Source of the DNA: Bacillota bacterium | GTDB taxonomy: Bacteria; Bacillota; UBA994; UBA5500 | DNA: 64,000 nt | Assembly: GCA_050949055.1 (NCBI GenBank) | Contig: JBMNFA010000007.1 | Span: 64,749-128,748 of the forward strand | Direction of reading: 5' to 3' | Part shown: piece by piece, positions 1-57,222 of the stretch | Layout: each line of letters opens with the position of its first letter | How positions within the stretch are numbered: position 1 is the first letter of the stretch | The notes under the pieces: model-generated | Databases searched by the model: none | Told to the model about the DNA's origin: nothing | The model's input: the letters and a program-made list of their open reading frames with translations, nothing else | Made by a program: the position numbers and the translations under genes

Positions 1-830
1 TAGAGCAGCCTTCGGAGCACCCGCTGGGCCAAGCCATTGTACGGGCGGCGAAGGGGCGGCAGCTGGAACTGCAGTCGCCCGTCGGTTTTCGGGCCTTCCC
101 CGGCCACGGCATCGCGGCGGAAGTGAATGGACAGTCGGTTCTGGTGGGCAATCGCCAGCTGATGCAGACCACTGGCATAGATGTCGCGGCATATCAGGAG
201 CGGATGGAAGCGCTGGAGGAGCAGGGCAAGACGGCCATGTTGGTGGCGGTGGCAGGGCAGCCAGCCGGCATCGTGGCGGTAGCCGATACCATCAAGGAGA
301 CCTCTGCGCAGGCCATCTCGGACTTGCAGCGCCTGGGCTTGGGAGTGTATATGATTACCGGTGACAACTGGCGGACCGCAAAGGCGATTGCCCGCTTGGT
401 GGGCATCGACGAGCAGCATGTGCTGGCGGAAGTTTTGCCCGAGAACAAGGCGGCCGAAGTGCAGCGACTGAAGGATCAGGGGCGCAAGGTGGGAATGGTG
501 GGCGACGGCATCAACGATGCCCCAGCCTTGGCCACCGCCGATGTGGGCATGGCCATCGGCACTGGTACGGACGTGGCCATGGAGGCCGCCGATATCACGC
601 TGATGCGCGGCGACCTGCGCTCCATTGTGCAGGCCATCCGCCTCAGCCGTGCTACCATGCGCAACATCAAGCAAAACCTGTTTTGGGCCTTCTTCTACAA
701 CACCGTCGGGATTCCCATCGCTGCGCTCGGCTTCCTCAACCCGATCATTGCCGGCGCGGCCATGGCCTTCAGTTCGGTCAGCGTGGTCACCAACGCCTTG
801 CGTTTGCGGCGGGTGGATGTCAGCAATTGA
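1..830 (+). CDS. copA: Copper-translocating P-type ATPase, C-terminal part (gene starts upstream of window; reading frame runs from position 3)
   Basis: The translation gives [10 protein letters not shown]...[11 protein letters not shown] (hinge motif) and a C-terminal transmembrane tail, as in CopA/HMA P1B ATPases. There is no start codon inside the window for the upstream part. Confidence 0.85.
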
Positions 831-6385: not shown

Positions 6386-6386
6386 T

Positions 6387-8897: not shown

Positions 8898-10040
8898 CTA
8901 CCGGGCACTCAGTTCCGCCAGCGCCCTAATCGCCCAGTCGACATCTTCTGCCGTGTTGCTGTATCCGACGCTTAACCGCACCGTGCCGGCTGGAAAAGTG
9001 CCGATGGCCTGATGGGCCAGCGGAGCGCAGTGCAGGCCCGGCCGACTGATGATGCCGTAATCATCTTCCAGCGCTACCGACAGGTCTGCAGCATCCCAGC
9101 CAGCCAGGTTGACGGAGACCACTCCGACGCCCTGCTGACCGCCGGGCCCGTAGACCGTGACGCCCGGAATCTGCTGCAGGCCCGCGCGCAGGCGCTCCGT
9201 TAACCCCAGCTCATGCTTGCTCACCTGTTTCAGCCCTTGCCGCAGCAACCATTCCACCCCGGCGGCCAGGCCGGCCAAGCCAGGGGTGTTCGGGGTGCCT
9301 GCTTCCAGCCGATCGGGCATGAACTCAGGGTGCCATACCTGATGGGACGCGCTGCCGGTACCGCCCACCCGCCAAAAGGCCAACTCCACGTCTGGGCGCA
9401 CATAGAGCAGGCCCGTGCCTTGCGGGCCAAACAAACACTTGTGTCCGGGAGCGGCCAGGCAGGCCGGTCGCAACGCCTGCACGTCGATGGGCATGGCCCC
9501 CAGGGTCTGGGATGCGTCCAGCAGCAACTTGATGCCGTGCGACTGGCAGAGATCGCTGACAGCCTGCACGTCCAGCAGAGCGCCGGTGACGTTAGAGGCG
9601 TGGCTGACAGCAATCATCGCCGTGTTGTTCCGGATCGCCTGCTCAAACTGCTCCACCCGCACGGTCAAGCCGTCGGGTGCTTCCAACACGGTCAACTCGA
9701 TGCTGCTTTGTTTGGCCAAATGCGAGAGGGGACGCAGGACCGAGTTATGGTCAAAACAGGTGGTGATCACATGATCGCCCGGCCTCACCAGGCCGTTGAT
9801 GGCCATGTTCAAGGCGTCGGTCGCATTCAGGGTAAAGGCGACACTGGCTGAGCTCGGCGCATTGAGCAACTGGCTGACCAGATGACGGGCCTGGCTGACC
9901 AAGCGGGCGGCATGCAGGGACAGGCGATGGCCGGAGCGGCCAGGGTTGCCACCGTGTTCTAAGGCGTCCAGCACTGCCCGCTTGACCTCTTCCGGCTTCG
10001 GCCAGGAGGTGGCCGCGTGATCCAGGTAGACTATAGACAC
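8898..10040 (-). CDS. Class V aminotransferase-fold PLP enzyme: cysteine desulfurase / selenocysteine lyase family
   Basis: The PLP-lysine motif APGHKCLFGPQGTG and the active-site Cys loop GLHCAP are both present. Length 380 aa. It is the last gene of the yedE-yedF-DUF3343 operon. Confidence 0.75.
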   Translation of the reverse strand: MSIVYLDHAATSWPKPEEVKRAVLDALEHGGNPGRSGHRLSLHAARLVSQARHLVSQLLNAPSSASVAFTLNATDALNMAINGLVRPGDHVITTCFDHNSVLRPLSHLAKQSSIELTVLEAPDGLTVRVEQFEQAIRNNTAMIAVSHASNVTGALLDVQAVSDLCQSHGIKLLLDASQTLGAMPIDVQALRPACLAAPGHKCLFGPQGTGLLYVRPDVELAFWRVGGTGSASHQVWHPEFMPDRLEAGTPNTPGLAGLAAGVEWLLRQGLKQVSKHELGLTERLRAGLQQIPGVTVYGPGGQQGVGVVSVNLAGWDAADLSVALEDDYGIISRPGLHCAPLAHQAIGTFPAGTVRLSVGYSNTAEDVDWAIRALAELSAR

Positions 10041-10112
10041 TCAAATTCCCTCCCAGGAACGCAGAATCAGCCTGCAGAACGCCGGCCCTGCCAGTAGGGC
10101 CGGCGCTGCCGA

Positions 10113-10337
10113 CTACAGCGGGCCGTAAATCTCCTCATGCTCTAGGTGGCAGCTTGCCAAGGCATCCAACACCGATTGAGAATTCTCTGCCACCACCTCG
10201 GCGCAGATGCCGCAGGAAGAGCTGAACTGTCGTGGAACCGGACGCAAGCGGCAAGAAAACCCGGCAGCCGTCAACTCGCGCTCGGCTTCCATCGCCCAGT
10301 AGACGGAGTGAAAGGTGACCACATACTTGTGTTGCAT
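10113..10337 (-). CDS. DUF3343 family small protein (putative Se/S carrier, commonly next to yedE/yedF)
   Basis: 74 aa, fitting the VTFHS...FSCRL.PVPRQFSSSCG pattern of DUF3343. Confidence 0.6.
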   Translation of the reverse strand: MQHKYVVTFHSVYWAMEAERELTAAGFSCRLRPVPRQFSSSCGICAEVVAENSQSVLDALASCHLEHEEIYGPL

Positions 10338-10340
10338 CTG

Positions 10341-10559
10341 TTAAGGCCTGACTGACACGGCCCAGCTGCCATCCGCCTGCTGCTCCACCGTCGGTTGCTT
10401 CTTGGTGACGGTGAGCAGGAAACGAGTCACATTTTCCTTGGCCACCGCTGTATCCACCAACACGGTCAACTGTTCTGTTCCGGCTTGTGCCAAGCCTTGC
10501 CGCGCCATGATCACCGGTTCCGGGCAGGAACGGCCCCGGGCATCAACTACCTTGCTCAT
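10341..10559 (-). CDS. yedF: TusA-like sulfurtransferase (YedF family)
   Basis: 72 aa with the CPxP motif (RGRSCPEPV). Confidence 0.75.
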   Translation of the reverse strand: MSKVVDARGRSCPEPVIMARQGLAQAGTEQLTVLVDTAVAKENVTRFLLTVTKKQPTVEQQADGSWAVSVRP

Positions 10560-11644
10560 CAGGCTTCCACCTCCTTGGACGAATGCTGTCTCCTCGCTAC
10601 CCGCAAGGTCTCACGCGTACCCAGCCCTAAAACTAACAGTAATACCAGCAGGCCCCAACTAGCTATCTGGCCATTTACTGGCACGCCGTTGCCGCTGGCC
10701 GCCAATCCGAAATTGTGGGCTATAGCAGCGCCCATGATCAGCCCCAGCACTGTGCTCATCGCATCCACGTCGCCTTCGCCAGCCAAGATCAATTGCCGCA
10801 ACGGGCAGCCTCCCAGCAGGGCAGCTCCCAACCCAGTCACCAGCATGCCGAGGAAGTTGTAGAGGTGGTTGCTGTGGGCAATCGGCTGCCCGGCGAAGCC
10901 CAGATTGAAGTTGCCCATCGCCAGGTTGAGCAGCAGGGCTGCCGCCAAAATGCCGATAAACCCGCTGATCAGGTGGCTATCCCTAAACAGGATCGCGTCT
11001 CGGATGCCGCCCACCATGCACAGACGGGTGCGCTGTGCGGCATAGCCGACCAGCAGCCCTGCCCCCAGAGAGATCAACACCGGGGCGGAAAGGGCACCAG
11101 GGCCTTCGCTGCTGCGGAAGATGAAGCCAGGAGCTACCAACGCCAGAATCACCAGGCCAACGGCAAACAGTGGCGCCGCCAGCCCAGCCGCTGGCGGTTG
11201 CGGATAGCTCCGCCCCAAAGTAAAACCGCTCCTGAGGCAGACCACTCCCAGAACGATGCCGGCGGTGAAGCCAGCCAGCCCGACCAGTGCATTCAAATCC
11301 CCGCCAGCCAACCTCAGCACCATTCTCAATGGACAACCGAGGAAGAGCAGGGCGCCGATGCTGACCATCATTCCCAGGAAAAAGCGCAGAACAGGGCTGG
11401 AGCCGCCCCGCGGACGGAACTCCTTGGCGAGTATGGCAGCCAGGAACGAACCAAGGATGAATCCTGGGATCTCCAGGCGAATGTTTTGCACCACCGCTGC
11501 TCGATGAAAGCCCAGCGCGCCGCTGATGTCCCGGAGGAAACAGACCACACAGACGCCCATGTTCTTGGGGTTGCCGAAGTAGACCAGCAGGGCCCCCAGC
11601 GCCCCCACCAACAACCCGACGGCGATAATCCTCTTTCTCTCCAC
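10559..11644 (-). CDS. yedE: YeeE/YedE family inner-membrane transporter (thiosulfate/selenium-related)
   Basis: 361 aa polytopic membrane protein with two YeeE/YedE repeats. Its stop overlaps the yedF start. Confidence 0.8.
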   Translation of the reverse strand: MERKRIIAVGLLVGALGALLVYFGNPKNMGVCVVCFLRDISGALGFHRAAVVQNIRLEIPGFILGSFLAAILAKEFRPRGGSSPVLRFFLGMMVSIGALLFLGCPLRMVLRLAGGDLNALVGLAGFTAGIVLGVVCLRSGFTLGRSYPQPPAAGLAAPLFAVGLVILALVAPGFIFRSSEGPGALSAPVLISLGAGLLVGYAAQRTRLCMVGGIRDAILFRDSHLISGFIGILAAALLLNLAMGNFNLGFAGQPIAHSNHLYNFLGMLVTGLGAALLGGCPLRQLILAGEGDVDAMSTVLGLIMGAAIAHNFGLAASGNGVPVNGQIASWGLLVLLLVLGLGTRETLRVARRQHSSKEVEA

Positions 11645-12676: not shown

Positions 12677-12707
12677 CCCAGATAATGCAGCGGGAGGAGG
12701 TGAAGTG

Positions 12708-12929
12708 ATGCCCAGATTCGACGGTTCTGGCCCCGCCGGGCGAGGTCCGATGACCGGTTGGGGGCGGGGTAATTGCATTGTCCCTGTACGCGGCTGGGCT
12801 GCCCGGGCTGGGGTCCAGCGTGTGCCCAGCCGGCGGATCGTGCGGGGCTTTCGGAGACCCCCCCTCAGGGAAGAGATTGCCTCGCTGCGAAACCAGATCA
12901 ACCGGTCGCGCAGACAGTTGGAAAAGTGA
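12708..12929 (+). CDS. DUF5320-like small protein (MPRFDGSGPAGRGPMTGWGRGNC... plus C-terminal coiled coil)
   Basis: The N-terminal Gly/Pro-rich signature and the helical tail resemble small proteins that co-occur with DUF134 and NifX-like genes. Confidence 0.45.
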   Translation: MPRFDGSGPAGRGPMTGWGRGNCIVPVRGWAARAGVQRVPSRRIVRGFRRPPLREEIASLRNQINRSRRQLEK

Positions 12930-12992
12930 GGTGGCCACACGGCTAAAGCTCCGCGCAGCTTTGGCCATCATTCTCGTGGGAGGTGTCAGGTT

Positions 12993-13349
12993 ATGCGAAT
13001 TTGTATTACCAGCAAAGGCAAGGAACTCACCGATCAGTTGGACGAGCGCTTTGGACGCTGCTCATATCTCTTAGTGGTGGACACAAGCAGTGGAGCTGTG
13101 GAATCGCTGAAGAATCCCGGGGTGTTGGTAGATCATGGAGCGGCCATTGCTGCTGCTCAGCGCGTATTGGATGCTCAGGTAGACGTGCTGTTGACTGGGA
13201 ATCTGGGGCCGAACGCGGAAGGGATGCTGGAATCGCACAACATGACTGTATACCAAGCACGGAACTGTAGTGTGCAGGAAGCTTTGGCAGCCTATCAAGC
13301 CGGGCAGCTGAAGCAGCTGCTGTCGGTGCGAACCGGTGCTGAGCAATGA
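12993..13349 (+). CDS. NifX/NafY/NifB-C-terminal-like dinitrogenase FeMo-cofactor-binding domain protein
   Basis: 118 aa with an MRICITSKG...FGRC start typical of the NifX-like fold. Confidence 0.65.
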   Translation: MRICITSKGKELTDQLDERFGRCSYLLVVDTSSGAVESLKNPGVLVDHGAAIAAAQRVLDAQVDVLLTGNLGPNAEGMLESHNMTVYQARNCSVQEALAAYQAGQLKQLLSVRTGAEQ

Positions 13350-14176
13350 AAGTCGCAGTCCTCAGTGGCAAGGGTGGCACCGGCAAGACTACGGTGGCGG
13401 TCAATTTGGCTCACGTCATGCGCTGGCGCTACATGGATTGCGATACTGAAGAGCCGAACGGCTGGGCATTTCTGCAGCCGAAGCTGCTGCAGTCAGAAGC
13501 CGTCCGGATTCCCAATCCGGTTGTCGATCAGGAGTTATGTACCCGCTGTGGTTCATGCGCGCAGGCCTGCCAGTTTCAAGCTCTTGGTGTGACCGCAAAA
13601 GGAGTGCTGATCTTTTCCCAGTTGTGTCACGGTTGCGGTCTCTGTTCACTGGTCTGCCCTGAGCAGGCTATTGATGAACAGCCTAGGGAAATTGGCCGAA
13701 TCGACCATGGCCTTGGCCCAAACGGCGAGTGTTGGCAGGGGGTGATGAATGTGGGGGAGTTGGCTGGCGCACGCATTATTGAGCAGATGTTGCGCCAGCT
13801 AACAGGCACCACCCCTCTGATCATGGACTGTGCGCCAGGCACGTCCTGCAACGTGATTGCCGTCGCCAAGCACGCCGACTTCGCCCTCCTGGTCACCGAG
13901 GCCACTCCTTTTGGTGCGCATGATTTGGAGGCCTCCATCAAGTTGCTGCAGTCGCTAGGCCTGCCGGGAGCGATTGTGGTCAACCGCTCCGTCGAGGACG
14001 CTGGTCTGATCTCAGATGTGGCTGACCATTATCAGCTGCCAATTATTGCCCGGTTACCTTTCAGTCGCCATGCGGCCGCATTGACTGCCGCTGGCAAACT
14101 GCTACAGGGCGAGGACTTCCCTGAGATGTTTGCCCAGCTCGGAGATCGCATTCGGGGGTTGATCAGATGCAACTAG
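13346..14176 (+). CDS. MinD/ParA-type P-loop ATPase with 2x[4Fe-4S] ferredoxin insert
   Basis: Walker A motif LSGKGGTGKTT, plus CTRCGSCAQACQ and CHGCGLCSLVCPEQA. Confidence 0.7.
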   Translation: MKVAVLSGKGGTGKTTVAVNLAHVMRWRYMDCDTEEPNGWAFLQPKLLQSEAVRIPNPVVDQELCTRCGSCAQACQFQALGVTAKGVLIFSQLCHGCGLCSLVCPEQAIDEQPREIGRIDHGLGPNGECWQGVMNVGELAGARIIEQMLRQLTGTTPLIMDCAPGTSCNVIAVAKHADFALLVTEATPFGAHDLEASIKLLQSLGLPGAIVVNRSVEDAGLISDVADHYQLPIIARLPFSRHAAALTAAGKLLQGEDFPEMFAQLGDRIRGLIRCN

Positions 14177-15030
14177 TGGTATTGAGTGGCAAGGGAGGTA
14201 CCGGCAAGACGACAGTGGCAGCAGCGATAACCAGGTTGGCCGCTTGTCCTCTGGCCGTCGACTGCGATGTGGATGCGGCCAATCTGCACCTTTTGTTGGG
14301 CATGCGGGATTTATCCAGTGAAGATTTTTCCGGCTCCAAGGTGGCAGAACTGGACGATAGCCGGTGTGTGCGCTGCAACCGTTGTGGCAGCGTCTGCCGC
14401 TTCGACGCCATTGAGTATGGGATGGTAGATCAGTTGAGCTGTGAGGGATGTGGCGCCTGTGTCTACGCCTGTCCGTATGACGCCCTGGCGCTGGTAGATC
14501 AGACCATCGGGCAGGTGTTTCTCACCAGTACCACATGGGGACATCTCAGCCGGGCCGAGATGTATCCTGGGGCAGATGGATCCGGAAAGCTGGTCACCCG
14601 CGTGCGGGAGCAAGCCGCGGAAATTGCTGACCGCGCGTCAAGTCCGACCATCTTGGATGGCCCGCCTGGTATCGGCTGCCCTGTGATCGCCACCCTCACC
14701 GGTTGTGACGCCGCTCTCTTGGTCCTAGAACCCAGTTACTCCAGTCAACATGACTTCTTGCGTTTGCTGCAACTGCTTCACAAATTTGACATCAAGACGT
14801 ACGCCTGTATCAACCGTCACGACCTAAGTCCCGATAACTGTCGAGAGTTGCAGCAGGTTTGTGAGCAGAAAGGAGTTCCCATCGTCGGTTTGATTCCCTT
14901 CGATCCGCTGGTAATGGAGGCGCACCGGCAGCTGAAGTCAATTCTGGACTTTGAAGACAGCCCTGCTGCTGAAGCCATCCGCCAGATTTGGGCTAATCTC
15001 AGCAAAATGATAGGAGTTGATCAACAGTGA
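14167..15030 (+). CDS. Second MinD/ParA-type P-loop ATPase with 2x[4Fe-4S] ferredoxin insert
   Basis: Motifs LSGKGGTGKTT, CVRCNRCGSVCR and CEGCGACVYACP. It overlaps the previous gene. Confidence 0.7.
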   Translation: MQLVVLSGKGGTGKTTVAAAITRLAACPLAVDCDVDAANLHLLLGMRDLSSEDFSGSKVAELDDSRCVRCNRCGSVCRFDAIEYGMVDQLSCEGCGACVYACPYDALALVDQTIGQVFLTSTTWGHLSRAEMYPGADGSGKLVTRVREQAAEIADRASSPTILDGPPGIGCPVIATLTGCDAALLVLEPSYSSQHDFLRLLQLLHKFDIKTYACINRHDLSPDNCRELQQVCEQKGVPIVGLIPFDPLVMEAHRQLKSILDFEDSPAAEAIRQIWANLSKMIGVDQQ

Positions 15031-15386
15031 TCGTGGCGCTAGCCTTAGAGAAAGATGAAAAAATCGCCCAGCATTTCGGACGTTGCCCCACCTTCCGCTT
15101 GGTGAGGATTGAGGGGGGGCGTCAAGTGGCCGTGCATGATCTCCCCAGTCCGCGGCACCAACCCGGATTGTTGCCGCGAGTGCTGAAGGAGTATGGCGTT
15201 GATGTGGTGGTTGCCGGGGGTATGGGTGGCTCCGCCCAGGGTCTGTTCCAGCAGTACGGCATCGAAACAGTGGTTGGGGTTGCAGGAGATGGTCAGTCAA
15301 TAATCGAACAGTTTGTTAGGGGGCAGCTTCGCTCCACCGGTGAGGTATGTCGCGAACATAGCTACGAAGATGAATGTGGGAAGTAG
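15027..15386 (+). CDS. NifX-like FeMo-cofactor-binding domain protein (second copy)
   Basis: 119 aa with an IAQHFGRCPTF motif; the start overlaps the upstream stop. Confidence 0.55.
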   Translation: MIVALALEKDEKIAQHFGRCPTFRLVRIEGGRQVAVHDLPSPRHQPGLLPRVLKEYGVDVVVAGGMGGSAQGLFQQYGIETVVGVAGDGQSIIEQFVRGQLRSTGEVCREHSYEDECGK

Positions 15387-15413
15387 CCCCGGAGAAATGG
15401 AGGTAGATATTAA

Positions 15414-15794
15414 ATGAAACAACCGATCGCCAGCGAATTGGCACCGGCAGCTGTTGGACCTTATTCTCAGGCTGTAAAGACAGGCAATCTGCTATTTGTC
15501 TCTGGCACCCTACCCATCGACCCTAAGACCGGCGAGCTGGCCCCGGGAGGCATTGAGGGACAGACCCGCATGGTGTTTGAGAACATGCGCTGTGTTCTGG
15601 CTGCAGCCGGAGCTGACTTCTCCAATTTGGTTAAGACTACCGTCTACTTAGCGGATATCGCAGATTTCGCCGCCATGAATGCCATCTATGCCGAATATGT
15701 CCCCAGCCCCTTCCCCGCCCGGGCTGCTTTCCAGGTCTCCGCTCTGCCTAAGGGAGCAATGGTGGAAATTGAGGCCGTGGTTGAGTTATCATAA
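15414..15794 (+). CDS. ridA: RidA/YjgF family reactive-intermediate deaminase
   Basis: 126 aa with the [10 protein letters not shown]...VEIEAVV signature. Confidence 0.85.
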
Positions 15795-15877
15795 TATAAG
15801 GAGAGGTTGATAGTCTGCACGCGACTGTCGCTCGATCCATATCCGCTGTTCTTTGAACATGCATGAGGAGGTGACGC

Positions 15878-16264
15878 ATGCCTAGACCGCCGATACACCG
15901 CATGGTAGAACGTGAACCGATCTGTACTGTCTTCAAGCCAGCGGGCAGGCCGATGGCCGGGATGGAAGAAGTGGTGGTCACGGTTGAAGGAATCGAGGCT
16001 ATCAGGTTAAAAGACCTGTTGGGACTCGACCAGGAAGAGTGCGCCGAATGCATGCATGTTTCCCGAGCCACATTCCAACGCCTGTTGACCGTCGCCCGCG
16101 AGGGAGTTGCCCGGGCGATCGTCGAGGGCAGGCCCTTGCGTATCCAAGGTGGGCACTACCGCTTGCGAGGCGCGTGCCAGGCGCTGCGCGGCCCTGGCCG
16201 CAGAAGAGCCCGCTGCCGGCGGCAATGCTATCAGACGCTGGATGGCTCGCGAGAGTCAGAATAG
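15878..16264 (+). CDS. DUF134 domain protein (predicted DNA-binding, sigma-70 region-4-like HTH)
   Basis: MPRPP..R....EP....FKP.G.P.....EVVVTVEGIEAIRLKDLLGLDQEECAECMHVSRATFQRLL matches the DUF134 consensus. Confidence 0.7.
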   Translation: MPRPPIHRMVEREPICTVFKPAGRPMAGMEEVVVTVEGIEAIRLKDLLGLDQEECAECMHVSRATFQRLLTVAREGVARAIVEGRPLRIQGGHYRLRGACQALRGPGRRRARCRRQCYQTLDGSRESE

Positions 16265-18039: not shown

Positions 18040-18290
18040 GAAAGACACCAAAACTAGGCGATGAACGAAGCCAGTAGTCAGTGCGCTGGGTGCAAAGAGA
18101 GTCGGTGGGTGGTGTGAACCGATGTCGGCGTGCGGATGAATTACCTTCGGGAGCTTTCCTGACGAAGGGAAGTAGTCAGGGACGGAACCTTTCCGTTATC
18201 AAGTCTGAGGTGGGTGGGCTACTGGTCCACCAACCAGGGTGGTACCGCGAGCTAAGAACTCGTCCCTGCATGGGGACGGGTTCTTTTTTG
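18040..18290 (+). promoter_or_regulatory. T-box riboswitch leader (tyrosine specifier UAC) with terminator/antiterminator
   Basis: AGAGAG/GGTGG stem I elements lie near 18085..18105, and the specifier GAAUUACC sits at 18139..18146. The T-box sequence AGGGTGGTACCGCG is at 18235..18249. A terminator hairpin at 18261..18279 is followed by a T-run at 18281..18288. Confidence 0.75.
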
Positions 18291-18336: not shown

Positions 18337-19581
18337 ATGAACAAAACCCTTTCCCTCAAGCAGCAGTTGGCAATCCTATCCGGGGGAGCTGTGGAGATTA
18401 TCCCCAAGGAAGGGCTGGTGGACAAGCTGGCCCGTTCCATCCAGAGCGGTCAGCCTTTGAAGGTGAAGCTGGGGCTCGATCCCACCGCGCCGGACCTCCA
18501 TCTGGGGCACACCGTGGTGATCAACAAGCTGAAGCAGTTTCAGGATTTGGGCCATGTGGTGCAGTTGGTGATCGGCGATTTTACCGGCCGCATCGGCGAC
18601 CCCACCGGTCGCTCCGAGGCTCGGCAACAGCTGACTGAAGAAGCAGTGCAAGCAAATGCCCGCACCTATGTGGAGCAATATGGCAAGATCCTGGATATCG
18701 AGCGCACGGAACTGCACTTCAATAGCCACTGGCTGGCTCCCTTGCGCTTTGCCGACGTGGTGCGCCTTGCGGCCACCTACACGTTGGCCAGAATGCTAGA
18801 GCGGGAGGACTTCACCCACCGTTGGCAGAACAACCTGCCCATCAGCCTGCACGAGTTCTTCTACCCGCTGATGCAGGGCTATGACTCGGTGGCGCTGCAG
18901 ACCGATATCGAGATCGGCGGTACCGATCAGACTTTCAACTTGTTGGTCGGTCGCCATCTGCAGCGGGCATATGGCCAGCCTGAGCAGGTGGTGATGACCT
19001 TCCCTCTGTTGGAAGGCCTGGACGGAGTACAAAAGATGAGCAAGAGCCTGGGCAACTACGTCGGCATCAGCGAGCCGGCAGAGGAGATGTACGGCAAGGT
19101 GATGTCCATATCCGACCAACTCATGCTCAGGTACTACCAGTTGGTGACCGATATCGCCCCACCAGAGCTGCAACAGTTGCGGCAGGGGCTGGCCGATGGT
19201 TCTGTGCACCCCTTGGAGGCCAAGATGCGTCTGGCCGGGCAACTGGTGGCCCGCTACCACGGGGAGGAAGCAGCGCTTTTGGCCGCAGAGCATTTCCGCA
19301 CCGTCTTTCAGCAGCGGGAACTGCCGGAAGACATGCCAACTGTTGTCTGGAAGGCAGGGTCACAGGTAGCTATTATCGATTTGCTGTCCCTAACCAACTT
19401 GGTCGGCAGCAAGAGCGAAGCCCGGCGGATGGTGGAGCAGGGTGCCGTTAGGGTGGATCAGCACAAAGTACAAGATGTGCATCAGTCCATTAATGTCAAG
19501 AATGGGACTGTGGTCCAGGTGGGGCGACGGAAGTTCGCCAAGCTGGCTTTGAGCGACTGTGATAGTATTGATCTGGGGTAA
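18337..19581 (+). CDS. tyrS: Tyrosine--tRNA ligase
   Basis: HIGH motif (HLGH), KMSKS motif (KMSKSLGN) and a C-terminal S4 domain. Confidence 0.95.
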   Translation: MNKTLSLKQQLAILSGGAVEIIPKEGLVDKLARSIQSGQPLKVKLGLDPTAPDLHLGHTVVINKLKQFQDLGHVVQLVIGDFTGRIGDPTGRSEARQQLTEEAVQANARTYVEQYGKILDIERTELHFNSHWLAPLRFADVVRLAATYTLARMLEREDFTHRWQNNLPISLHEFFYPLMQGYDSVALQTDIEIGGTDQTFNLLVGRHLQRAYGQPEQVVMTFPLLEGLDGVQKMSKSLGNYVGISEPAEEMYGKVMSISDQLMLRYYQLVTDIAPPELQQLRQGLADGSVHPLEAKMRLAGQLVARYHGEEAALLAAEHFRTVFQQRELPEDMPTVVWKAGSQVAIIDLLSLTNLVGSKSEARRMVEQGAVRVDQHKVQDVHQSINVKNGTVVQVGRRKFAKLALSDCDSIDLG

Positions 19582-19829: not shown

Positions 19830-20375
19830 TTGATATTCAGTAGAATGGAGGATAGTCAAATGAGCAAGATTGATTTGGTAATCGGTGAAGTGCCCACCTC
19901 CGCAGGCACCTTTGGTGCGCTGGTATCACCCCAGGGCTTGGCCAGACTGACCTTTCCCGGCGAGCCCCTAGAAGTATGCGAGCAGTTTGCTCGTCGCTGG
20001 TGGCCGCAGGGACAGATCGTCCCTGACGACGGTCGCCTGCAGCCGATTGTAGAGCAGTTGCAGGCCTACTTCCAAGGTAAATTGCGCACATTCAGCTTAC
20101 CTCTGCACATGCAGGGTACCCCCTTTCAGCAGCAGGTATGGGCCGCCTTGCAGCAAGTTCCCTTCGGCCAGACCCGCTCTTATGCGGACCTCGCCGCAAG
20201 CATCGGAAACCCAAGAGCAGTGAGGGCAGTGGGCAGGGCCAATGGTGCCAACCCGGTGCCAGTTATTGTTCCCTGCCACCGCATCATCGGCAAGAGTGGC
20301 AAGCTGGTAGGCTATGCTGGCGGCCTGGAAATCAAACAGATGTTGCTCGAGTTAGAAGGGATAACGCTGGCGTAA
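19830..20375 (+). CDS. ogt: Methylated-DNA--protein-cysteine methyltransferase
   Basis: Active site PCHRIIG. Confidence 0.85.
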   Translation: MIFSRMEDSQMSKIDLVIGEVPTSAGTFGALVSPQGLARLTFPGEPLEVCEQFARRWWPQGQIVPDDGRLQPIVEQLQAYFQGKLRTFSLPLHMQGTPFQQQVWAALQQVPFGQTRSYADLAASIGNPRAVRAVGRANGANPVPVIVPCHRIIGKSGKLVGYAGGLEIKQMLLELEGITLA

Positions 20376-22005: not shown

Positions 22006-23988
22006 TCATCTTTGCAGATACTCTCGTACCCGCTCCAGCCGGTCGACTACCGGCACTCCCGCCGGCAGCGATTGTGCGACAAGCTCGCGCAGTTGCCCCT
22101 CTTCACCCAGGTCCAGCACGGCAATTACGCCGCGATCGCTGCTGGTACGAATCAGGCGACCGTAACCTTGACGCAGTCTGATCAGCATGGCTGTCAAGTC
22201 CACGGCGCGCCATGGGTCAAGACCAGCTTGCTCCGCAGCCTCCCGCTTGCTGAGCAATAAGGGATCGGGTTCGGGGAACGGCAGGCTGAGGACGATTACC
22301 AGGGATAGAGCATCGCCTGGTATATCCACTCCCTCCCAGAAGGAGGTGCCGCTGAGCACTGAGTCAGTCTGTTCCTGAAATCGCCTCAGCAACCAACCCC
22401 GTTCAGCATCGCCTTCCCATAGCAACGGAAAGGGTAACGTTTTGCTCTGTGCGAACTGGCGCCACGCCTCCAAATCACTTGCGCTGCTGACCAGCACCAG
22501 GCCTTTACCCCCGTTTTGCAGCAGCAGCTGCAAGCACTGTTCTGCTCGTTGCTCCCAGCTGGACCGACGCTCGCTGGGCAGATAGGCGCACATCTGTTCT
22601 GCCAGTTGAAAGGAAGTTGTCACAAAGGACTCCTTGGCCTGCGGAAGGCCCAGCAGTTGTTTCATGCCCGCAAAAGAACCGGCCGCTTGCAGCGTGGCCG
22701 AGGTGAAAATCAGCGGTTGATGTTCCTTGAGCAACTCCTGCCCAATCAGCGTGCCAAAGCTGCTAGGTAGCACCCACAGGGTGTCGCTGTCTGGCTCCCA
22801 CCAGACCACTTGCTCCCCGGCTGGTTGGCTCAGCAGCCTTAACGTTGCCTCTGCCTGCTCCAGCCGTTCTGTGGCCACCAAGAGCTCTGTCTCAAGAGGA
22901 GTCCACAGGTGTTGTTCTGTCTCAATGGCCACCTGATCGGCTGCCTCCCGTACAGAGTGTCGGCAGTGTTCGGCAGCGTTGATCAGGTCCTGATCCACGC
23001 GCACAAACCAACGCTGCATGACATCGCTGGGCAGCACTGTTCGCTGCAGTTCGGTGTAGAAACGGCGTGCGCTCACCAGCAACCGCTGCAGTGCCGCCAG
23101 CAGTTTGGATCGCAGTCGCTGGCGGTTAGCCCAGAGTGATTGATACAGACCCTCTATCAGTGGCTGACGGAAGCTATTCCCCAACTGCTCGATTGCGGGG
23201 CGCTCCAACAGATGCCCCTCGTCAAAGATGCAGGCTGATGATGCGGGAAGCAAAGGCGGCAAACCTTCCTGGTCCCGTTTGGCCTTGCTCCACAGATGCC
23301 GAAAAAACTGATCGTGGCTCGCCACCACGAAGTCCGTGGCAGCCCAAATGTGCAGCCGATTCCTGGCCACCTGGCAGTAGCCGCGATGCTGGCAGTGATC
23401 GCAAGCCAGGCTCTCGTCCCAGGCAACCGTCTGCCACAGCTCGTCGCTCACCTCAGGTATTTCTGCTCGGTCCCCCAATGCGGTGCTAAGTTTCCATTCG
23501 TTCAGTCTCCGCAACTCTGGGGTATCCATCTCCAGCCAAGGTTCCCGTTCAGCTTTTCGCTGACAGAGGTAGTTGCGGGGATCCTTGGCCACGCGGACAT
23601 CGATGTTCAGTCCCAGCAAGCGAGAGAGCTGATCGACGTCTCCGCGCTTTCCCGCCAATTGCTCTTGTAGCAGGGAAGAGGCGCTGGAGAGGATTACCGG
23701 TTTGCTGCTGAAACGGGCATAGCAGATGGCAGGCAGCAAATAAGCGAAAGTCTTGCCTGTTCCGGATCCGGCTTCCGCCAGTAGGACATCCTGATGGCAG
23801 AGGGCTTCGGCGATGCGAAATGAAGTGTAGATCTGTTCTTCGCGCACCTCGTATCCCCGCGACGGTAGCACCTCATAGAACTGCTCGCCCAGCCAATCCA
23901 TCAGCTTCTTGCGGAAATCATCACTGGTGGTGTAACGAAAGGGCACCTCTAGCCAACGCAGTTGACTCACCAAAAAACCTCCTCGCAT
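22006..23988 (-). CDS. dinG: DinG/Rad3-family ATP-dependent DNA helicase
   Basis: Walker A EAGSGTGKT and DEAH-box IFDEGHLL. Length 660 aa. Confidence 0.75.
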   Translation of the reverse strand: MRGGFLVSQLRWLEVPFRYTTSDDFRKKLMDWLGEQFYEVLPSRGYEVREEQIYTSFRIAEALCHQDVLLAEAGSGTGKTFAYLLPAICYARFSSKPVILSSASSLLQEQLAGKRGDVDQLSRLLGLNIDVRVAKDPRNYLCQRKAEREPWLEMDTPELRRLNEWKLSTALGDRAEIPEVSDELWQTVAWDESLACDHCQHRGYCQVARNRLHIWAATDFVVASHDQFFRHLWSKAKRDQEGLPPLLPASSACIFDEGHLLERPAIEQLGNSFRQPLIEGLYQSLWANRQRLRSKLLAALQRLLVSARRFYTELQRTVLPSDVMQRWFVRVDQDLINAAEHCRHSVREAADQVAIETEQHLWTPLETELLVATERLEQAEATLRLLSQPAGEQVVWWEPDSDTLWVLPSSFGTLIGQELLKEHQPLIFTSATLQAAGSFAGMKQLLGLPQAKESFVTTSFQLAEQMCAYLPSERRSSWEQRAEQCLQLLLQNGGKGLVLVSSASDLEAWRQFAQSKTLPFPLLWEGDAERGWLLRRFQEQTDSVLSGTSFWEGVDIPGDALSLVIVLSLPFPEPDPLLLSKREAAEQAGLDPWRAVDLTAMLIRLRQGYGRLIRTSSDRGVIAVLDLGEEGQLRELVAQSLPAGVPVVDRLERVREYLQR

Positions 23989-28601: not shown

Positions 28602-29132
28602 ATGATCAAGTTGCGTACCAACCTGGAAGCTATCGAGGCCATGCTCTACTATTGGGATGCCACCAAGGACAAAGAGAAGGTTAACGAACGTTTTCTGCAC
28701 GACTTCGCCGCCCTTCCGGCTATGACCATGGCTTACGACCAGGAGTTTGATGCCGAGGCGGTGCGCAAAGTGCTCAGCGGAATTACCAATCGCGAGCCTC
28801 TGCGCCCAGCTAACAAGAAAGAAGGCCGCTTTTTCAACAACAACCTGTGGATGCTGGAGGACCTTAGCCTGACGCAGTCAATGGCCCAGTCGATCAAGGT
28901 GCTGAACTTGGATCAGTTGGCAGCTGAGCTGTCAGAAGAATTTAAGGTTGACCGCACCATCACCGTCTACTTCGCTCCCTTGCATCTGGACGAAGTCTAT
29001 CTGCGTCCAGAGAAGGATGCGATCATTCTCAACTTCTTCCGGCTACAGCCTGACTTCATGGGCGGCGTCAACTTCTGCAACCAGCCGCTCGCCGACTACC
29101 TGGCTGCACAGCTGCGGCAGTTGCTGCAATGA
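28602..29132 (+). CDS. Hypothetical protein (about 176 aa)
   Basis: ORF in an operon context; no recognised domain. Its stop overlaps the nfo start (ATGA). Confidence 0.3.
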   Translation: MIKLRTNLEAIEAMLYYWDATKDKEKVNERFLHDFAALPAMTMAYDQEFDAEAVRKVLSGITNREPLRPANKKEGRFFNNNLWMLEDLSLTQSMAQSIKVLNLDQLAAELSEEFKVDRTITVYFAPLHLDEVYLRPEKDAIILNFFRLQPDFMGGVNFCNQPLADYLAAQLRQLLQ

Positions 29133-29983
29133 GCGGTCAAGTGCTACGCATCGGTGCCTTCTTATCCATTGCCAAGGGTGTGGACAAAGTGGTGCCGCAA
29201 GCGGTGGAGATTGGAGCCAACACCTTTCAATTCTTTACTCGCAACCCCCGGGGCGGTGCAGCCCGCGCCATAGGTGAAGCGGAGATTGCCTGTTGGCTCA
29301 AGCTGCGTCAAGCAGAGGATATTTTTCATGTCTGCGGCCACCTGCCCTACACGGTGAATCCAGCCAGTGACAAGGACAAACTGATCGATTTCGCCACCAT
29401 GGTGGTGCGAGACGATCTGCAACGCATGTCTGCGTTACAGATTGAGTATTTAGTCATGCATCCCGGCAGTGCGGGGGACCAGCGAGAAGTCGCTCTGGAA
29501 CGAGTGATCCGAGTCTTGGACAAAGGGCTATCAGGGTATGATGGCGACGCTTGGTTGCTGTTGGAGACGATGGCTCTACAGGGTAACGAGATCGGCAGTC
29601 TGCATGATTTGGGCACCATTTGGAAGGGGTTGGGTAGGCCGCCGCAGGTGGGAGTCTGCCTGGACTCGTGCCACCTATTTGGTGCCGGCTATGATTTCAG
29701 AGTGCGCAGCGAAGTAGAGCGCCTGGTGGAAGACATCGACCGCCATGTCGGTTTGGATCGGGCGCGGGTCCTGCATCTCAACGACAGCAAAATGCCTGCC
29801 GGCAGTCACCGGGACCGCCATGCCAACATCGGTGAGGGTGAGATTGGCCGCCAGGGTTTTGAGAATTTGCTCAACCACCCCTGGATACGCACCTTGTCCT
29901 GGCATCTGGAGACTCCGGTGGACAGCTACCGTGACTATGCCCGAGACATCGCAACCGTAAAGGATATTGCAGGCGCGCAGTGA
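29129..29983 (+). CDS. nfo: Endonuclease IV (AP endonuclease, xylose-isomerase TIM barrel)
   Basis: LHLNDSK...RDRHANIGEGEIG metal-ligand signature. Confidence 0.85.
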   Translation: MSGQVLRIGAFLSIAKGVDKVVPQAVEIGANTFQFFTRNPRGGAARAIGEAEIACWLKLRQAEDIFHVCGHLPYTVNPASDKDKLIDFATMVVRDDLQRMSALQIEYLVMHPGSAGDQREVALERVIRVLDKGLSGYDGDAWLLLETMALQGNEIGSLHDLGTIWKGLGRPPQVGVCLDSCHLFGAGYDFRVRSEVERLVEDIDRHVGLDRARVLHLNDSKMPAGSHRDRHANIGEGEIGRQGFENLLNHPWIRTLSWHLETPVDSYRDYARDIATVKDIAGAQ

Positions 29984-30134: not shown

Positions 30135-30608
30135 CTAGCCGTCTTCCTTGGCCATTGCCTCCAGAATACGCAGGATTTCTTGCTCATTGCGCCGAAATGC
30201 CAGGTCATTGACCACCAGATGGCGAACAATGCCCCGCTTGTCAATAATAAAGGTGGCCCGTGCAGCGACGGACTGCTCTGGCAGCAATACACCGTAGGCT
30301 GCGCTCACCTGGCGTTTCATGTCGCTGAGCAACGGGAAGGTGACCTGCAGATTCTCCGCAAATGCTTTATGGGATGGGACACTGTCTACACTGATGCCCA
30401 GCACCTGGGCACTCAACTTGCTCAGTTGCGGGAGGATTTCCTGGCAAGCTGGTAGCTCAGATGTTCAGACCGGGGTCCAATCCAAGGGATAGAATAAAAG
30501 GACCACGCTTTGCTGGCCACGAAAGCTGCTCAGCGTTACCGCTTGATCGTTTTGATCCCGCAGAGTGAAGTCCGGTGCCTGTTTGCCGACAAATACGCCT
30601 TCTAGCAC
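30135..30608 (-). CDS. Peroxiredoxin (Prx1/AhpC-like, ~157 aa) with in-frame TGA (30465..30467) at the peroxidatic-Cys position: candidate selenocysteine peroxiredoxin
   Basis: Manual translation of the minus strand gives MLEGVFVGKQAPDFTLRDQNDQAVTLSSFRGQQSVVLLFYPLDWTPV-[TGA]-TSELPACQEILPQLSKLSAQVLGISVDSVPSHKAF...ATFIIDKRGIVRHLVVNDLAFRRNEQEILRILEAMAKEDG. The TGA falls exactly where FTFVCPTE carries the peroxidatic Cys. A GGAGGTGA RBS precedes the GTG start. A candidate hairpin (CAGCUUGC..GCAAGUUG) at 30414..30451 lies 16 nt downstream of the UGA in the mRNA. The ORF track shows only the part downstream of the TGA (30135..30416). Confidence 0.7.
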
Positions 30609-30671
30609 AAACTCACCTCCTATCGATCCGTTCTAGTATCCCCAGCTACCGTTTAGTCATTATCTGAAGGA

Positions 30672-38550: not shown

Positions 38551-39117
38551 TTATGCCTTGATGGATGATGACGCCAGGAACCGCAGTGGCAAATCAGTCC
38601 CCACACTGATGCCGATGCGTGGCGTTACCCGCACTGCAGCCGGCCTGGCCCCCGGCAGAATGTACAGCGGGGGTTGCTGCAGCGGATGGCCGTTTAGGTT
38701 CAAATCGATGGCCAACGCCTGGCATAGCTTGCCCGGTCCGTTGACCAGCTGCTTGTCCGGCGCGCCACCCCGCCGAGAGCGCATCAGATCGACTCCCTCC
38801 AGCGGTTGCAGCGCCCGAAGCAGCACGGCCTCTGGAACTCCTTCCGGTTGGCAGACCACGTTGAAACAGCGGTGGATGCCGTAGCTGATATAGATATAGC
38901 TGCTACCGGGCGGTCCATACATAGGCCGGTTACGACGGGTGGGTCCTCGGAAGGAGTGGCTGGCCGGGTCCCCGGTTGCCAGATAAGCTTCTGTCTCCAT
39001 AATCACCCCACTGATCAGGCCGCTGGGAGTGACCCTGACCAATACCTTTCCCAACAGGTCCCGGGCAATGGTGGCCGTGTCACGGCCAGAATAGAACTCC
39101 TCTGGGATAGCGTTCAT
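38551..39117 (-). CDS. mpg: DNA-3-methyladenine glycosylase (Mpg/AAG family)
   Basis: EFYSGRDTATIARDLLGKVLV...ETEAYL...YGPPGSSYIYISYGIHRCFN signature. Confidence 0.8.
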   Translation of the reverse strand: MNAIPEEFYSGRDTATIARDLLGKVLVRVTPSGLISGVIMETEAYLATGDPASHSFRGPTRRNRPMYGPPGSSYIYISYGIHRCFNVVCQPEGVPEAVLLRALQPLEGVDLMRSRRGGAPDKQLVNGPGKLCQALAIDLNLNGHPLQQPPLYILPGARPAAVRVTPRIGISVGTDLPLRFLASSSIKA

Positions 39118-39380
39118 TTGCAGCCTCCTTTGCCAAGCGTTTGCTGCTCCTTGTATAATGACAATAATATCTGATCTCATCTGCCGCGTATCCAGGGTGG
39201 CATGGTTGGACTGCCTGATGCCAGTCCTTGCTCCATTCTAGTATGCGCTAGAGGGCGCCCAGTCTCAAACTAGATCGCGCACGAGCCTCCCGACCCGTAA
39301 CCAGTTGAAACGGGGGCGCCGTAGGACGAATGTCTGATTTGCAGATTGCTTGCCGCTCAAGCCGAATAAGGAGGCTCCCT

Positions 39381-40022
39381 GTGTCAACCAAGAAAGAACA
39401 CGCCCAAGAAGTAATGCGACGCTTAGCAGCCAGGTATCCACAGGCACACTGCGAACTGAGCTTCCGCACCCCTTGGCAGCTGCTGGTGGCCACCATGCTG
39501 GCCGCCCAGTCCACCGATCAACAGGTGAACAAGCTCACGGCCCCCCTATTCGCCCGTTACCCTACCCCCCAAGCCCTAGTCGAGCTCCCTCTTGAGGAAC
39601 TGGAACAGCTGATCAAAGGTGTGGGGCTTTATCGTAACAAGGCCAAGAATATCCTGGCCACCTGCCGCATTTTACTGGATGAGTACGGGGGAGAGGTGCC
39701 CGCCAGTTTGCAGGAACTGGTTAAGCTGCCGGGGGTGGGGCGAAAGACAGCCAATGTGGTGCTATCCAATGCCTTCGACATCCCTGCCTTCGCCGTGGAC
39801 ACCCATGTGTTGCGGGTCAGCCGCCGTTTGGGTCTGGCTGAGCAGACAACGCCGGATAAAGTGGAAGCAGAAGTGACTGAGCTGCTGCCGCCCGAGCAAT
39901 GGAAAGACGCGCATCATTGGTTGATCTGGCATGGCCGCCGCACCTGCCATGCCCGCAAGCCGGCCTGCGACCGCTGTTCGTTGCAGGACATCTGCCCCGA
40001 GTCTGAAGGAGGAGAAGCATGA
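39381..40022 (+). CDS. nth: Endonuclease III
   Basis: HhH-GPD motif LPGVGRKTANVV and a [4Fe-4S] motif CHARKPACDRCSLQDICP. Confidence 0.9.
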   Translation: MSTKKEHAQEVMRRLAARYPQAHCELSFRTPWQLLVATMLAAQSTDQQVNKLTAPLFARYPTPQALVELPLEELEQLIKGVGLYRNKAKNILATCRILLDEYGGEVPASLQELVKLPGVGRKTANVVLSNAFDIPAFAVDTHVLRVSRRLGLAEQTTPDKVEAEVTELLPPEQWKDAHHWLIWHGRRTCHARKPACDRCSLQDICPESEGGEA

Positions 40023-41368
40023 ACAAACAGCCGATTATCATCTATACCGACGGTGCATGTTCCGGCAACCCCGGTCCCGGAGGCTACGGCGTGGTCATCC
40101 TGCAGGGAGCAGCCGTGCAGGAGCTCTCTGGTTGCGAGGATGAGACCACCAACCAACGGATGGAGCTGCAGGCAGCCATTGCCGGGCTGCGGCATGTTCC
40201 AGAGGGCAGCCGGGTAATTCTACATAGTGACAGCGCCTATCTGGTGCGCGCCTTCCGTGAACGCTGGCTGAACAAGTGGCAGCGCAACGGCTGGCAGAAC
40301 TCCAAGGGCGACGCCGTAGCCAACCAGGATTTGTGGCGGGAGCTGCTTGAGCTGGCTGCCACTCGCGAAGTGCAATGGGAGAAGGTGGCCGGGCATTCGG
40401 GCGATCGCTGGAACGAGCGCTGCGACGAACTGGCTCGGGCTGCAATTCTAGATAAGGAGGTTAAACAGATGAAACAGGGCTGGCTGCTGGTACTGAACAA
40501 AGACGAGAACACGGTGATGTATATCGACGCTGCCACCGGCAAGATCGCCAAGACGCTCCCGGTGGACAAGAACCCTCACGAGGTAGTGATCAGTCCTGAC
40601 GGGTCTTTGGCCTACGTCACCAACTCCGGCGGCAACACCCTCTCGGTGCTGGACAACCGCAACATGGAGGAGATCAAGCGCATTGGGCATCCCGATTTCC
40701 ACTTCCCCCATGGGCTGGCCATCACCCGTGATGGACAGCGGTTGCTGCTGGCGTCCACCCGTTCGGGCAAGTTCTTCGTCTTTTCCTTGCCGGACCTAAG
40801 CGTCAAGCACGTTTTCACCACCGGTCAGGATTCGGTGCACATGGTCTCATTAACCCCTGATGAGCATTTTGCTTACATAGCCAACATCCGCTCCAATACT
40901 GTCACCCGATTTGACATGCAGCGGGAACAGGTGCTGGAGCACATCCCTGTAGGTACAGGGCCGGAAGGTCTGGCCATTCATCCTAACGGCAGTGAACTAT
41001 ATGTTGCCAATCAGCACGACAACAATGTCTATGTGATGGACATGGTCGATCACAGCGTCAAGCACACCATCAAGCTGGGCACGCTGCCCATTCGCCTGGT
41101 GTTCAGCCCGGACGGCCACTACGCCTTTGTCCCCAACCGCGAGTCGGGCGACCTCTCGATCATCGACTGCAGCCGCCCCTGGGAGATCAAACGTATCCGG
41201 GTCGGCGTCTGGCCAGGTGGCGTAGTCTTCGATACTGCTGGCCAACGCGCCTTCGTGGCCAACAACAAGACCAACGATGTCTCCGTCATCGAGGTGGAGA
41301 CGCTGAAAGAGACCGGCCGCTTCGACGCCGGCATTCACCCGGATGGCATCGCCTACTTCGAGCTCTAA
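40019..41368 (+). CDS. rnhA: RNase HI domain fused to YVTN-type 7-bladed beta-propeller
   Basis: Residues 1-145 form an RNase HI domain with DEDD residues (YTDGAC, NQRMEL, HSDS, ERCDEL). Residues ~160-449 carry repeated SPDG..AYV.N..S..VSV blades. The ATG overlaps the nth stop. Confidence 0.8.
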   Translation: MNKQPIIIYTDGACSGNPGPGGYGVVILQGAAVQELSGCEDETTNQRMELQAAIAGLRHVPEGSRVILHSDSAYLVRAFRERWLNKWQRNGWQNSKGDAVANQDLWRELLELAATREVQWEKVAGHSGDRWNERCDELARAAILDKEVKQMKQGWLLVLNKDENTVMYIDAATGKIAKTLPVDKNPHEVVISPDGSLAYVTNSGGNTLSVLDNRNMEEIKRIGHPDFHFPHGLAITRDGQRLLLASTRSGKFFVFSLPDLSVKHVFTTGQDSVHMVSLTPDEHFAYIANIRSNTVTRFDMQREQVLEHIPVGTGPEGLAIHPNGSELYVANQHDNNVYVMDMVDHSVKHTIKLGTLPIRLVFSPDGHYAFVPNRESGDLSIIDCSRPWEIKRIRVGVWPGGVVFDTAGQRAFVANNKTNDVSVIEVETLKETGRFDAGIHPDGIAYFEL

Positions 41369-56967: not shown

Positions 56968-57018
56968 CCCTTCCAGCGAAACAAAACGGCGGTTCTTCTT
57001 GTTTCGCTTCTACTACTC

Positions 57019-57047
57019 TGACACGAGGGGACTGTCCCTTCGTGTCA
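57019..57047. repeat. GGGGACWGTCCCC-family palindromic element in addB/sbcD divergent intergenic region
   Basis: TGACACGAGGGGACTGTCCCTTCGTGTCA. This is not a terminator position, since both flanking genes start here. Confidence 0.6.
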
Positions 57048-57222
57048 TTGAAATTCCCGACCGACCAGCCTTTCTCCTGCTCGCAACCCTTTCCAGGATC
57101 AGGTGGTAGTGACTGCGAAGCTCAGGCAGGAAAGCAGCGCTGGCGGGCGAAATCAGTAGATTGAGTGACTAACAAACTTTAGGAACCGTCCCCAAAACCC
57201 TACCGAAGGAGAGTGGTAGCCC

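Follow-up and report, generated by a model that had tools for sequence, protein, structure and literature searches.

A probable selenocysteine peroxiredoxin of a short DWTPV-U type in an uncultured Bacillota lineage

Introduction

Peroxiredoxins (Prx; PF00578) bearing the motif TxxU, in which U denotes selenocysteine (Sec), are an established prokaryotic selenoprotein family, described in PMC13188914 as verified experimentally in the form of PrxU (Söhling 2001, as cited there). Zhang et al. (2006; PMC1794560) catalogued 12 Sec-Prx genes and five independent Cys-to-Sec events, and the survey of Peng et al. (2016; PMC5029168) counted 91 genes in 78 organisms, which placed it seventh among bacterial selenoprotein families by breadth of distribution. 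Here we consider a peroxiredoxin gene with an in-frame TGA on the minus strand of a 64-kb stretch of contig JBMNFA010000007.1 (assembly GCA_050949055.1, positions 64,749 to 128,748) from a Bacillota bacterium, the whole of this 64,000-nucleotide stretch being called the window. An initial annotation of the window had described Sec-containing peroxiredoxins as rare; given the 2016 catalogue that statement is outdated, and the type encountered here, named DWTPV-U after its active site, occurs by itself in at least 119 species genomes.

Judged from its sequence, the locus is very probably a functional Sec-peroxiredoxin gene, encoding a 157-residue AhpC/TSA thiol peroxidase whose peroxidatic residue would be Sec, specified by the UGA at 30467..30465.

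Results and Discussion

A single reading frame across one TGA

The features of the gene, read from the sequence except where other grounds are given, are as follows.

30135..30608, minus strand: peroxiredoxin coding sequence reading through one UGA (translation, Pfam, selection, codon scores)
30616..30621, minus strand: Shine-Dalgarno sequence AGGAGG, with a 7-nt spacer to the GTG
30608..30606, minus strand: GTG start codon
30465..30467, minus strand: in-frame TGA, putative Sec codon U48 in P41-L-D-W-T45-P-V-U48 (alignment to the peroxidatic Cys, and conservation)
30444..30446, minus strand: TGC codon of Cys55 (Sec+7), the sole Cys of the protein and candidate resolving residue (clade alignment)
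30137..30135, minus strand: TAG stop codon

Translation of the minus strand from 30608 to 30135 yields a single frame of 157 residues if the TGA is counted as an amino acid. Opening with GTG, the frame holds 47 sense codons in all before the TGA and 109 after it, and ends at TAG. Mechanical listing of open reading frames (ORFs) breaks it into a 47-aa ORF and a 93-aa ORF with a TTG start (30135..30416), the latter having been given as 94 aa in the initial annotation. The substance of that annotation, a TGA-interrupted peroxiredoxin missed by ORF calling, is borne out by the continuous frame and by a Pfam AhpC-TSA match running across the TGA, and the GTG start at 30608 with a good ribosome-binding site was likewise correctly placed (AGGAGG at 30621..30616).

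Codon scores on the two sides of the TGA are 0.29 and 0.38, to be compared with a mean of 0.29 for the 39 family-supported genes of the window. A six-frame codon-usage scan of the full 64 kb found this to be the sole TGA-split ORF with gene-like scores on both sides, so the observation is real rather than a chance alignment. A scan for promoter and terminator consensus sequences gave no signal exceeding shuffle expectation.

Active site and family membership

For profile searches the joined 157-aa product was used with Cys substituted at the TGA. The Pfam AhpC-TSA family (PF00578) is matched with E=2e-43 and 147.7 bits (cutoff 26) over residues 7-130 of 157 and profile positions 1-123 of 124, and since the matched region includes residues on either side of the TGA the match spans it. 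Comparison with the PDB returned the typical 2-Cys Prx 6j13 (7.9e-31) and Mycobacterium tuberculosis AhpE (Rv2238c, about 5e-30), the TGA column coinciding in both with the peroxidatic Cys. Locally, the segment 'ypldwtpvCtse' of the window protein aligns to 'YPLDFTFVCPTE' of 6j13.

The placement of the TGA at the peroxidatic codon, as originally proposed, is thus confirmed by alignment to solved structures and also by an alignment with 39 Cys homologs. In this latter Pro41, the Cys/Sec column (Cys in 39/39) and Arg117 are invariant, while the Thr45 column is Thr or Ser. All elements of the PxxxT/SxxC(U) motif and the catalytic Arg are therefore present as P41, T45, U48 and R117. Pro at U-7 and Thr at U-3 are found in every one of the 117 Sec-family genes among the matches listed (13 from the window clade and 104 from its sister subfamily; see below).

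The protein stops 109 residues past the Sec position and has neither a C-terminal arm nor a distal Cys. Its assignment in the initial annotation to the typical Prx1/AhpC type does not hold, given the lack of a C-terminal resolving Cys and a score of 79.5 bits against the AhpC model TIGR03137 (cutoff 272). The BCP model NF006960 is similarly missed, with 81.3 bits against a cutoff of 140. PrxU, which had been cited as the known example, is indeed a verified Sec-Prx, but the window protein is no ortholog of it: the PrxU model NF040737 scores 90.9 bits against a cutoff of 270, and relatives of the window protein score 71-94 bits. No NCBIfam peroxiredoxin model reaches its cutoff for the window protein or for the tested members of both subfamilies. 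By size and by the Rv2238c match the protein appears to be a short AhpE-like form, a classification to be read with the equal score of the Prx1 protein 6j13 in mind.

A Cys seven residues past the UGA, in the sequence LPAC, had been pointed out earlier and is confirmed as Cys55 (TGC, 30446..30444). It is invariant in all 13 clade members and is their sole conserved Cys; in the sister subfamily, which is of 1-Sec type, Tyr takes its place and no Cys is universally conserved. The further suggestion that Cys55 is the resolving residue is plausible. By analogy with PrxQ enzymes, Cys55 probably reacts with the selenenic acid to form a selenenylsulfide with U48 of the same molecule.

Conservation of the TGA and selection on both sides of it

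Species-representative genomes were scanned for DNA encoding Y-P-L-D-W-[T/S]-P-V followed by TGA, and at least 119 genomes matched. Nearly all the matches listed are full-length peroxiredoxins in which the TGA is the sole interruption, and they fall into two subfamilies, the clade of the window gene and a larger sister subfamily. The former, with the motif U-[STA]-[SL]-E-L-P-[AG]-C, has 13 members, two of them added by a clade-specific pattern scan of metagenomes; all those listed are from uncultured Bacillota, the closest of these being in the metagenome-assembled genome OH_CDB_256 (73% identity). The latter, with the motif U-[GT]-[AV]-Q-M-P-[SGA]-Y-E, comprises at least 104 distinct sequences. 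Among the matches listed its hosts are Acidobacteriota, many Bacilli (Neobacillus, Schinkia azotoformans, Anaerobacillus arseniciselenatis, Tumebacillus, Effusibacillus, Aneurinibacillus and Brevibacillus), heliobacteria, Zixibacteria and a few Actinomycetota. The carriers of the sister subfamily (loci such as L012, L022, L123 and L013) include aerobic or facultative cultured Bacilli, such as Neobacillus niacini, Schinkia azotoformans LMG 9581 and Tumebacillus avium, and many soil Acidobacteriota.

The TGA occupies the identical codon in the 12 clade orthologs, which share 57-73% identity with the window protein, and in the 104 sister genes among the matches listed. Three independent metagenome contigs from the same organism as the window have essentially identical sequence and the same TGA. 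A sense codon in close orthologs, raised in the initial annotation as a possible objection, was not encountered: every ortholog examined retains TGA.

Divergence within the clade at codon positions 1/2/3 is 0.28/0.19/0.61 over 41 codons before the TGA and 0.30/0.16/0.60 over 96 codons after it. The equal signature of purifying selection upstream and downstream indicates that the two halves act as one constrained protein. As to the genetic code of the host, TGA is the commonest stop in the window, ending 19 of the 39 family-supported genes, and no other gene requires its read-through; the code is therefore standard.

Public gene calls of the family

The same gene is mis-called repeatedly in public databases. 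Two ENA calls (P0001 and P0002, 62% and 56% identical to the window protein) read the TGA as Trp, which falls at the active site, and three JGI or Logan calls (P0003, P0078 and P0116) retain the C-terminal 89-105 aa only. The DNA behind these five proteins (L001, L002 and L003-L007) has TGA at the equivalent codon in every case, and the codons flanking it vary synonymously between orthologs, for example GATTGGACCCCGGTC versus GACTGGACGCCCGTC. The annotation error thus recurs as either a Trp at the catalytic position (ENA) or a truncated gene (JGI, Logan), and no NCBIfam model covers the DWTPV-U subfamily despite its occurrence in so many species genomes.

Two hairpins downstream of the UGA

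The RNA fold was computed from +12 onward, which corresponds to the mRNA outside a ribosome sitting at the UGA. The minimum free energy (MFE) structure of this segment consists of two adjacent hairpins (-27 kcal/mol, z = -2.2).

30414..30451, minus strand: proximal hairpin, candidate bacterial Sec insertion sequence (bSECIS), with its base 13 nt past the A of the UGA (MFE)
30394..30412, minus strand: distal hairpin spanning the codons of S-A-Q-V-L-G-I, its stem of 8 bp closed by a GUG triloop at 30404..30402 (MFE and covariation)

The proximal hairpin is exactly the stem-loop that had been noticed at 30414..30451 in the initial annotation. Its apical loop, GAAAUCCUCCCGCAA (30440..30426), is 15 nt long with G as its first base, and the distal hairpin directly abuts its 3' end. 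Both hairpins form at the same positions in 13/13 clade members. Against controls in which the protein sequence was kept and synonymous codons were redrawn, mean z values are -1.2 for the proximal hairpin, -2.2 for the distal hairpin and -0.25 for an internal control region. RNAalifold applied to an 11-sequence clade alignment recovered the distal hairpin alone, 100% paired and with two covarying pairs. Since the register and inner stem of the proximal helix vary, this latter required an explicit model: a manual two-stem model gives 80% pairing in the clade versus at most 42% in slid controls, while in the sister subfamily the helix +23..27 / +41..45 is 93.8% paired, versus at most 52.7%, with a median loop start of +30. 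For 92 of the 104 sister sequences the centre of the distal loop lies at +63.

Covariation in the distal hairpin is found within the peptide X-[A/T]-Q-V-L-G-I, where the first base of the Ala/Thr codon is coupled to the third base of the Gly codon 14 nt away, as in GCC with GGC or ACC with GGU. The pair is G-C in 55 sequences, A-U in 63 and otherwise in only 3 (Fisher p = 1.6e-33), whereas for six other conserved Gly codons, used as controls, p ranges from 0.76 down to no less than 0.0013. On a tree from which the columns concerned were left out, Fitch parsimony requires at least 9-10 independent changes per coupled site. Lineage structure or GC content as the source of the covariation was ruled out by the control Gly and Leu codons together with the parsimony result. 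Because a site that changes the amino acid tracks a synonymous one, RNA pairing is hard to avoid as the explanation. The distal hairpin does not form in the four Cys homologs tested, a small sample in which two encode the same peptide.

In the published bSECIS model (PMC13188914) an apical loop of 3-9 nt surmounts an upper stem of 4-16 bp, G is found in the first two loop positions and the loop lies 16-37 nt from the UGA. The proximal loop begins 27 nt past the U of the UGA, within this range, and has G first, but its 15 nt exceed the modelled loop length.

Folding of the free mRNA offers an alternative pairing, in which CAUCUG of the spacer (30458-30463, minus strand) can join CAGGUG of the distal hairpin (30402-30407, minus strand) in a long helix that excludes that hairpin. 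A ribosome at the UGA would melt this helix, so freeing the distal hairpin.

Selenium genes in the window

About 19 kb from the peroxiredoxin gene the window contains a four-gene cluster (8898..11644, minus strand) related to selenium, with no adjoining selD.

10559..11644, minus strand: YedE-family putative selenium transporter (TIGR04112, 459.5 bits, cutoff 200)
10341..10559, minus strand: TusA/SirA-like (YedF-like) small protein with an SCPEP motif (PF01206, 2.4e-12)
10113..10337, minus strand: putative Se/S carrier, DUF3343 (PF11823, 8.5e-19)
8898..10040, minus strand: class V aminotransferase of the cysteine desulfurase family, SclA-related (TIGR01977, 429.7 bits, cutoff 377)

The last of these scores 342.5 bits against the SclA (selenocysteine lyase) model NF040779, below the cutoff of 525. 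The YedE family is reported solely from selenium-utilising organisms (Lin et al., PMC5322559). From this combination of YedE, YedF-like, Se-carrier and SclA-like genes, selenium use by the host is likely.

Adjoining the selenium genes is a further conserved cluster (11906-16264, plus strand; also at loci L133-L135) encoding an MrpORP/ApbC-like ATPase, two CbiA/MinD-like ATPases with 4Fe-4S ferredoxin domains, two small Nitro_FeMo-Co (PF02579) proteins, a RidA-like protein and a DUF134 regulator.

The synteny of the clade was examined for a gene encoding a redox partner and showed housekeeping genes only (glycosyltransferase, AP endonuclease, polyprenyl synthase), with no candidate reductant. 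In 7 loci the upstream neighbour is a divergent glycosyltransferase gene, and in 5 the downstream neighbour is a convergent gene for an AP endonuclease.

Proposed mechanism

Four elements of the scheme that follows, Sec insertion itself, the hairpin that binds SelB, the resolving role of Cys55 and the identity of the reductant, are inferences. Translation would begin at GTG 30608. At the UGA, the downstream RNA, with the proximal hairpin followed by the distal 8-bp GUG-loop hairpin, would recruit SelB with Sec-tRNA(Sec), and Sec would be inserted in place of termination. Peroxide would then be reduced at U48 with the standard Prx set of Pro41, Thr45 and Arg117. The resulting selenenic acid would probably be resolved by Cys55, two helical turns away, giving an intramolecular selenenylsulfide that a thioredoxin-type reductant would in turn reduce.

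An elaboration that we put forward tentatively, thinking it possible and no better than that, is that the insertion signal is bipartite, with the distal hairpin, whose fdhF-like CAG-GUN-CUG apex lies about 62 nt past the UGA and well beyond the accepted 16-37 nt, as the actual SelB-binding element and the proximal hairpin as a folded spacer. The proximal hairpin, about 40 nt long and of variable sequence, would then hold the distal element at the customary 11-13 nt from the ribosome, measured through space. If this were true, the signal would represent a distinct SECIS architecture spread across Bacillota, Acidobacteriota and other phyla, and SECIS predictors constrained by distance would mis-score it.

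Weighing Sec insertion against other explanations

The interpretation of the gene as a Sec-peroxiredoxin draws on the conservation of the TGA, the equal selection on its two sides, the hairpins, the standard genetic code, the selenium cluster and the wrong public calls. A number of observations weigh against it. The 15-nt proximal loop exceeds the 3-9 nt of the bSECIS model, while the distal hairpin obeys the rules for loop, stem and G at a distance from the UGA of about 60 nt rather than 16-37; its absence from Cys homologs rests on four sequences, two of them with the same peptide. No Rfam SECIS model was matched, either in the whole window at the gathering threshold or in a permissive search of 30330..30520, which returned noise only (E about 1-10). 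YedE marks selenium use in general, whether as Sec, selenouridine or a Se-cofactor, and not Sec decoding specifically. Neither selA, selB nor selD was found among the approximately 49 ORFs of the 64-kb window with NCBIfam and Pfam, and ARAGORN found no tRNA there and hence no tRNA-Sec. No tRNA-Sec was found by ARAGORN in 60 family loci either.

The departure of the proximal loop from the strict bSECIS model leaves some room for read-through of the UGA without Sec, whether a near-cognate tRNA delivered Trp, Cys or Arg or termination produced a regulatory 47-residue peptide, and downstream hairpins could stimulate such read-through too. We nevertheless consider this very unlikely. The codon is the one catalytic Cys position, in a family where exchange of Sec and Cys is well documented; with Trp or Arg the enzyme would be inactive, yet purifying selection acts on the protein throughout; the window contains selenium-handling genes; and the distal apex resembles that of the fdhF SECIS. 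A Sec-peroxiredoxin by descent whose host had lost Sec decoding, the gene now being silent, would accord with the absence of selABCD and tRNA-Sec from the 64-kb window and with the frequent loss of selenoproteins in bacteria (PMC1794560). This too is highly improbable, as the frame, ribosome-binding site and both hairpins are intact, near-identical sequence is present in contigs of three metagenomes and the complete YedE / YedF-like / DUF3343 / SclA-like cluster has been kept.

That the TGA might be an error of sequencing or assembly, or an inactivating mutation in a decayed Cys-peroxiredoxin, is suggested by the truncated 93-aa ORF that gene callers produce and, again, by the Sec machinery not being seen within the window. 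Such an origin is hardly credible when three independent metagenome contigs of the same organism share the TGA, as do, among the matches listed, the 12 diverged orthologs and, from several phyla, the 104 genes of the sister subfamily, and when identical purifying selection and gene-like codon scores are seen on both sides. As for TGA being a sense codon under code 4 or 25, the two ENA calls with Trp are in its favour, but TGA stops 19/39 supported genes, its read-through is required by no other gene of the window, and AddAB and the gene context point to a host of the Gram-positive spore-former type of Bacillota; the probability of such recoding is practically nil. The conservation of the TGA, the two-sided selection and the stop usage together effectively exclude sequencing error, pseudogene and code reassignment.

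Other features of the window

A T-box leader (18052-18270, plus strand; RF00230, 131 bits) stands immediately 5' of tyrS (18337-19581, plus strand), an instance of ordinary Bacillota regulation. The density of DNA-repair genes is unusually high (2612-3643, 5261-8741, 19830-20375, 22006-23988, 29129-29983, 38551-40022 and 49802-62090): the set comprises an AlkZ-like glycosylase, an SbcD/Rad50-like pair, Ogt, a YoaA/DinG helicase, an AP endonuclease, a 3-methyladenine glycosylase, endonuclease III, AddAB and a second SbcCD pair. Finally, the gene at 40019-41368 (plus strand) encodes RNase HI (residues 4-150) joined to a YVTN-type beta-propeller, an uncommon architecture.

Comparison with known systems

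The window gene shares with the TxxU Prx selenoprotein family the use, here predicted, of Sec for the peroxidatic Cys in PxxxTxxU, the abundance of Cys homologs and a SECIS, here a candidate, within the coding sequence after the UGA; it differs in that the short DWTPV-U type passes no NCBIfam cutoff. With the verified, thioredoxin-dependent PrxU of Eubacterium (Peptoclostridium) acidaminophilum it would have in common Sec at the peroxidatic position. Unlike PrxU, the window protein is shorter (157 aa), aligns to positions 36-192 of the 233 in the model and has a Cys at Sec+7. M. tuberculosis AhpE (Rv2238c; PDB codes 1xvw, 1xxu and 4x0x) is closely similar in size (153 versus 157 aa), matches over residues 7-133, also lacks a C-terminal extension and shares the blocks APDFTLRDQN, FPLLSD and R-x-TF-(I/V)-(I/V)-D. 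AhpE is, however, a 1-Cys enzyme with PLAFTGIC, where the window protein has PLDWTPVU and a conserved Cys at +7.

Typical 2-Cys Prx1/AhpC proteins (6j13, TIGR03137) provide the top PDB score and a very similar active-site segment, but the window protein is without their C-terminal arm and without a resolving Cys about 120 residues downstream. An analogy may be drawn with PrxQ/BCP, in which a second redox residue follows shortly after the peroxidatic one, on helix alpha-2, and an intramolecular bond is possible. In PrxQ/BCP, in contrast, the resolving and peroxidatic Cys share a helix at a spacing of Cp+5 rather than +7, and the cutoff of the BCP model is not reached.

At the RNA level the comparison is with the E. 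coli fdhF SECIS, the sequence of which was confirmed in 5419 of 5426 E. coli genomes. In both cases a single-stranded spacer of 11-13 nt precedes a hairpin, which starts 11 nt past the UGA in fdhF and 13 nt past it in the window, and the distal apex CAG-GU(G/C/U)-CUG resembles the fdhF apex CA-GGUC-UG. The positions of these apices differ: counted from the U of the UGA, GGUC lies at +21..24 in fdhF, while the GGU apex of the window lies at +62..65, with a variable hairpin of about 40 nt in between.

Current understanding of Sec-peroxiredoxins is not overturned by these results, which add an uncultured Bacillota lineage to the users of selenoproteins. What may be new is the large short DWTPV-U family, captured by no curated NCBIfam model, and within it a distinct U-x6-C clade, now defined, whose catalytic cycle, by analogy, probably passes via a selenenylsulfide formed within the molecule. 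Also possibly new is the second hairpin, conserved and covarying at a distance of about 60 nt from the UGA; it provides a clean test case for the maximum distance between SECIS and UGA in bacteria.

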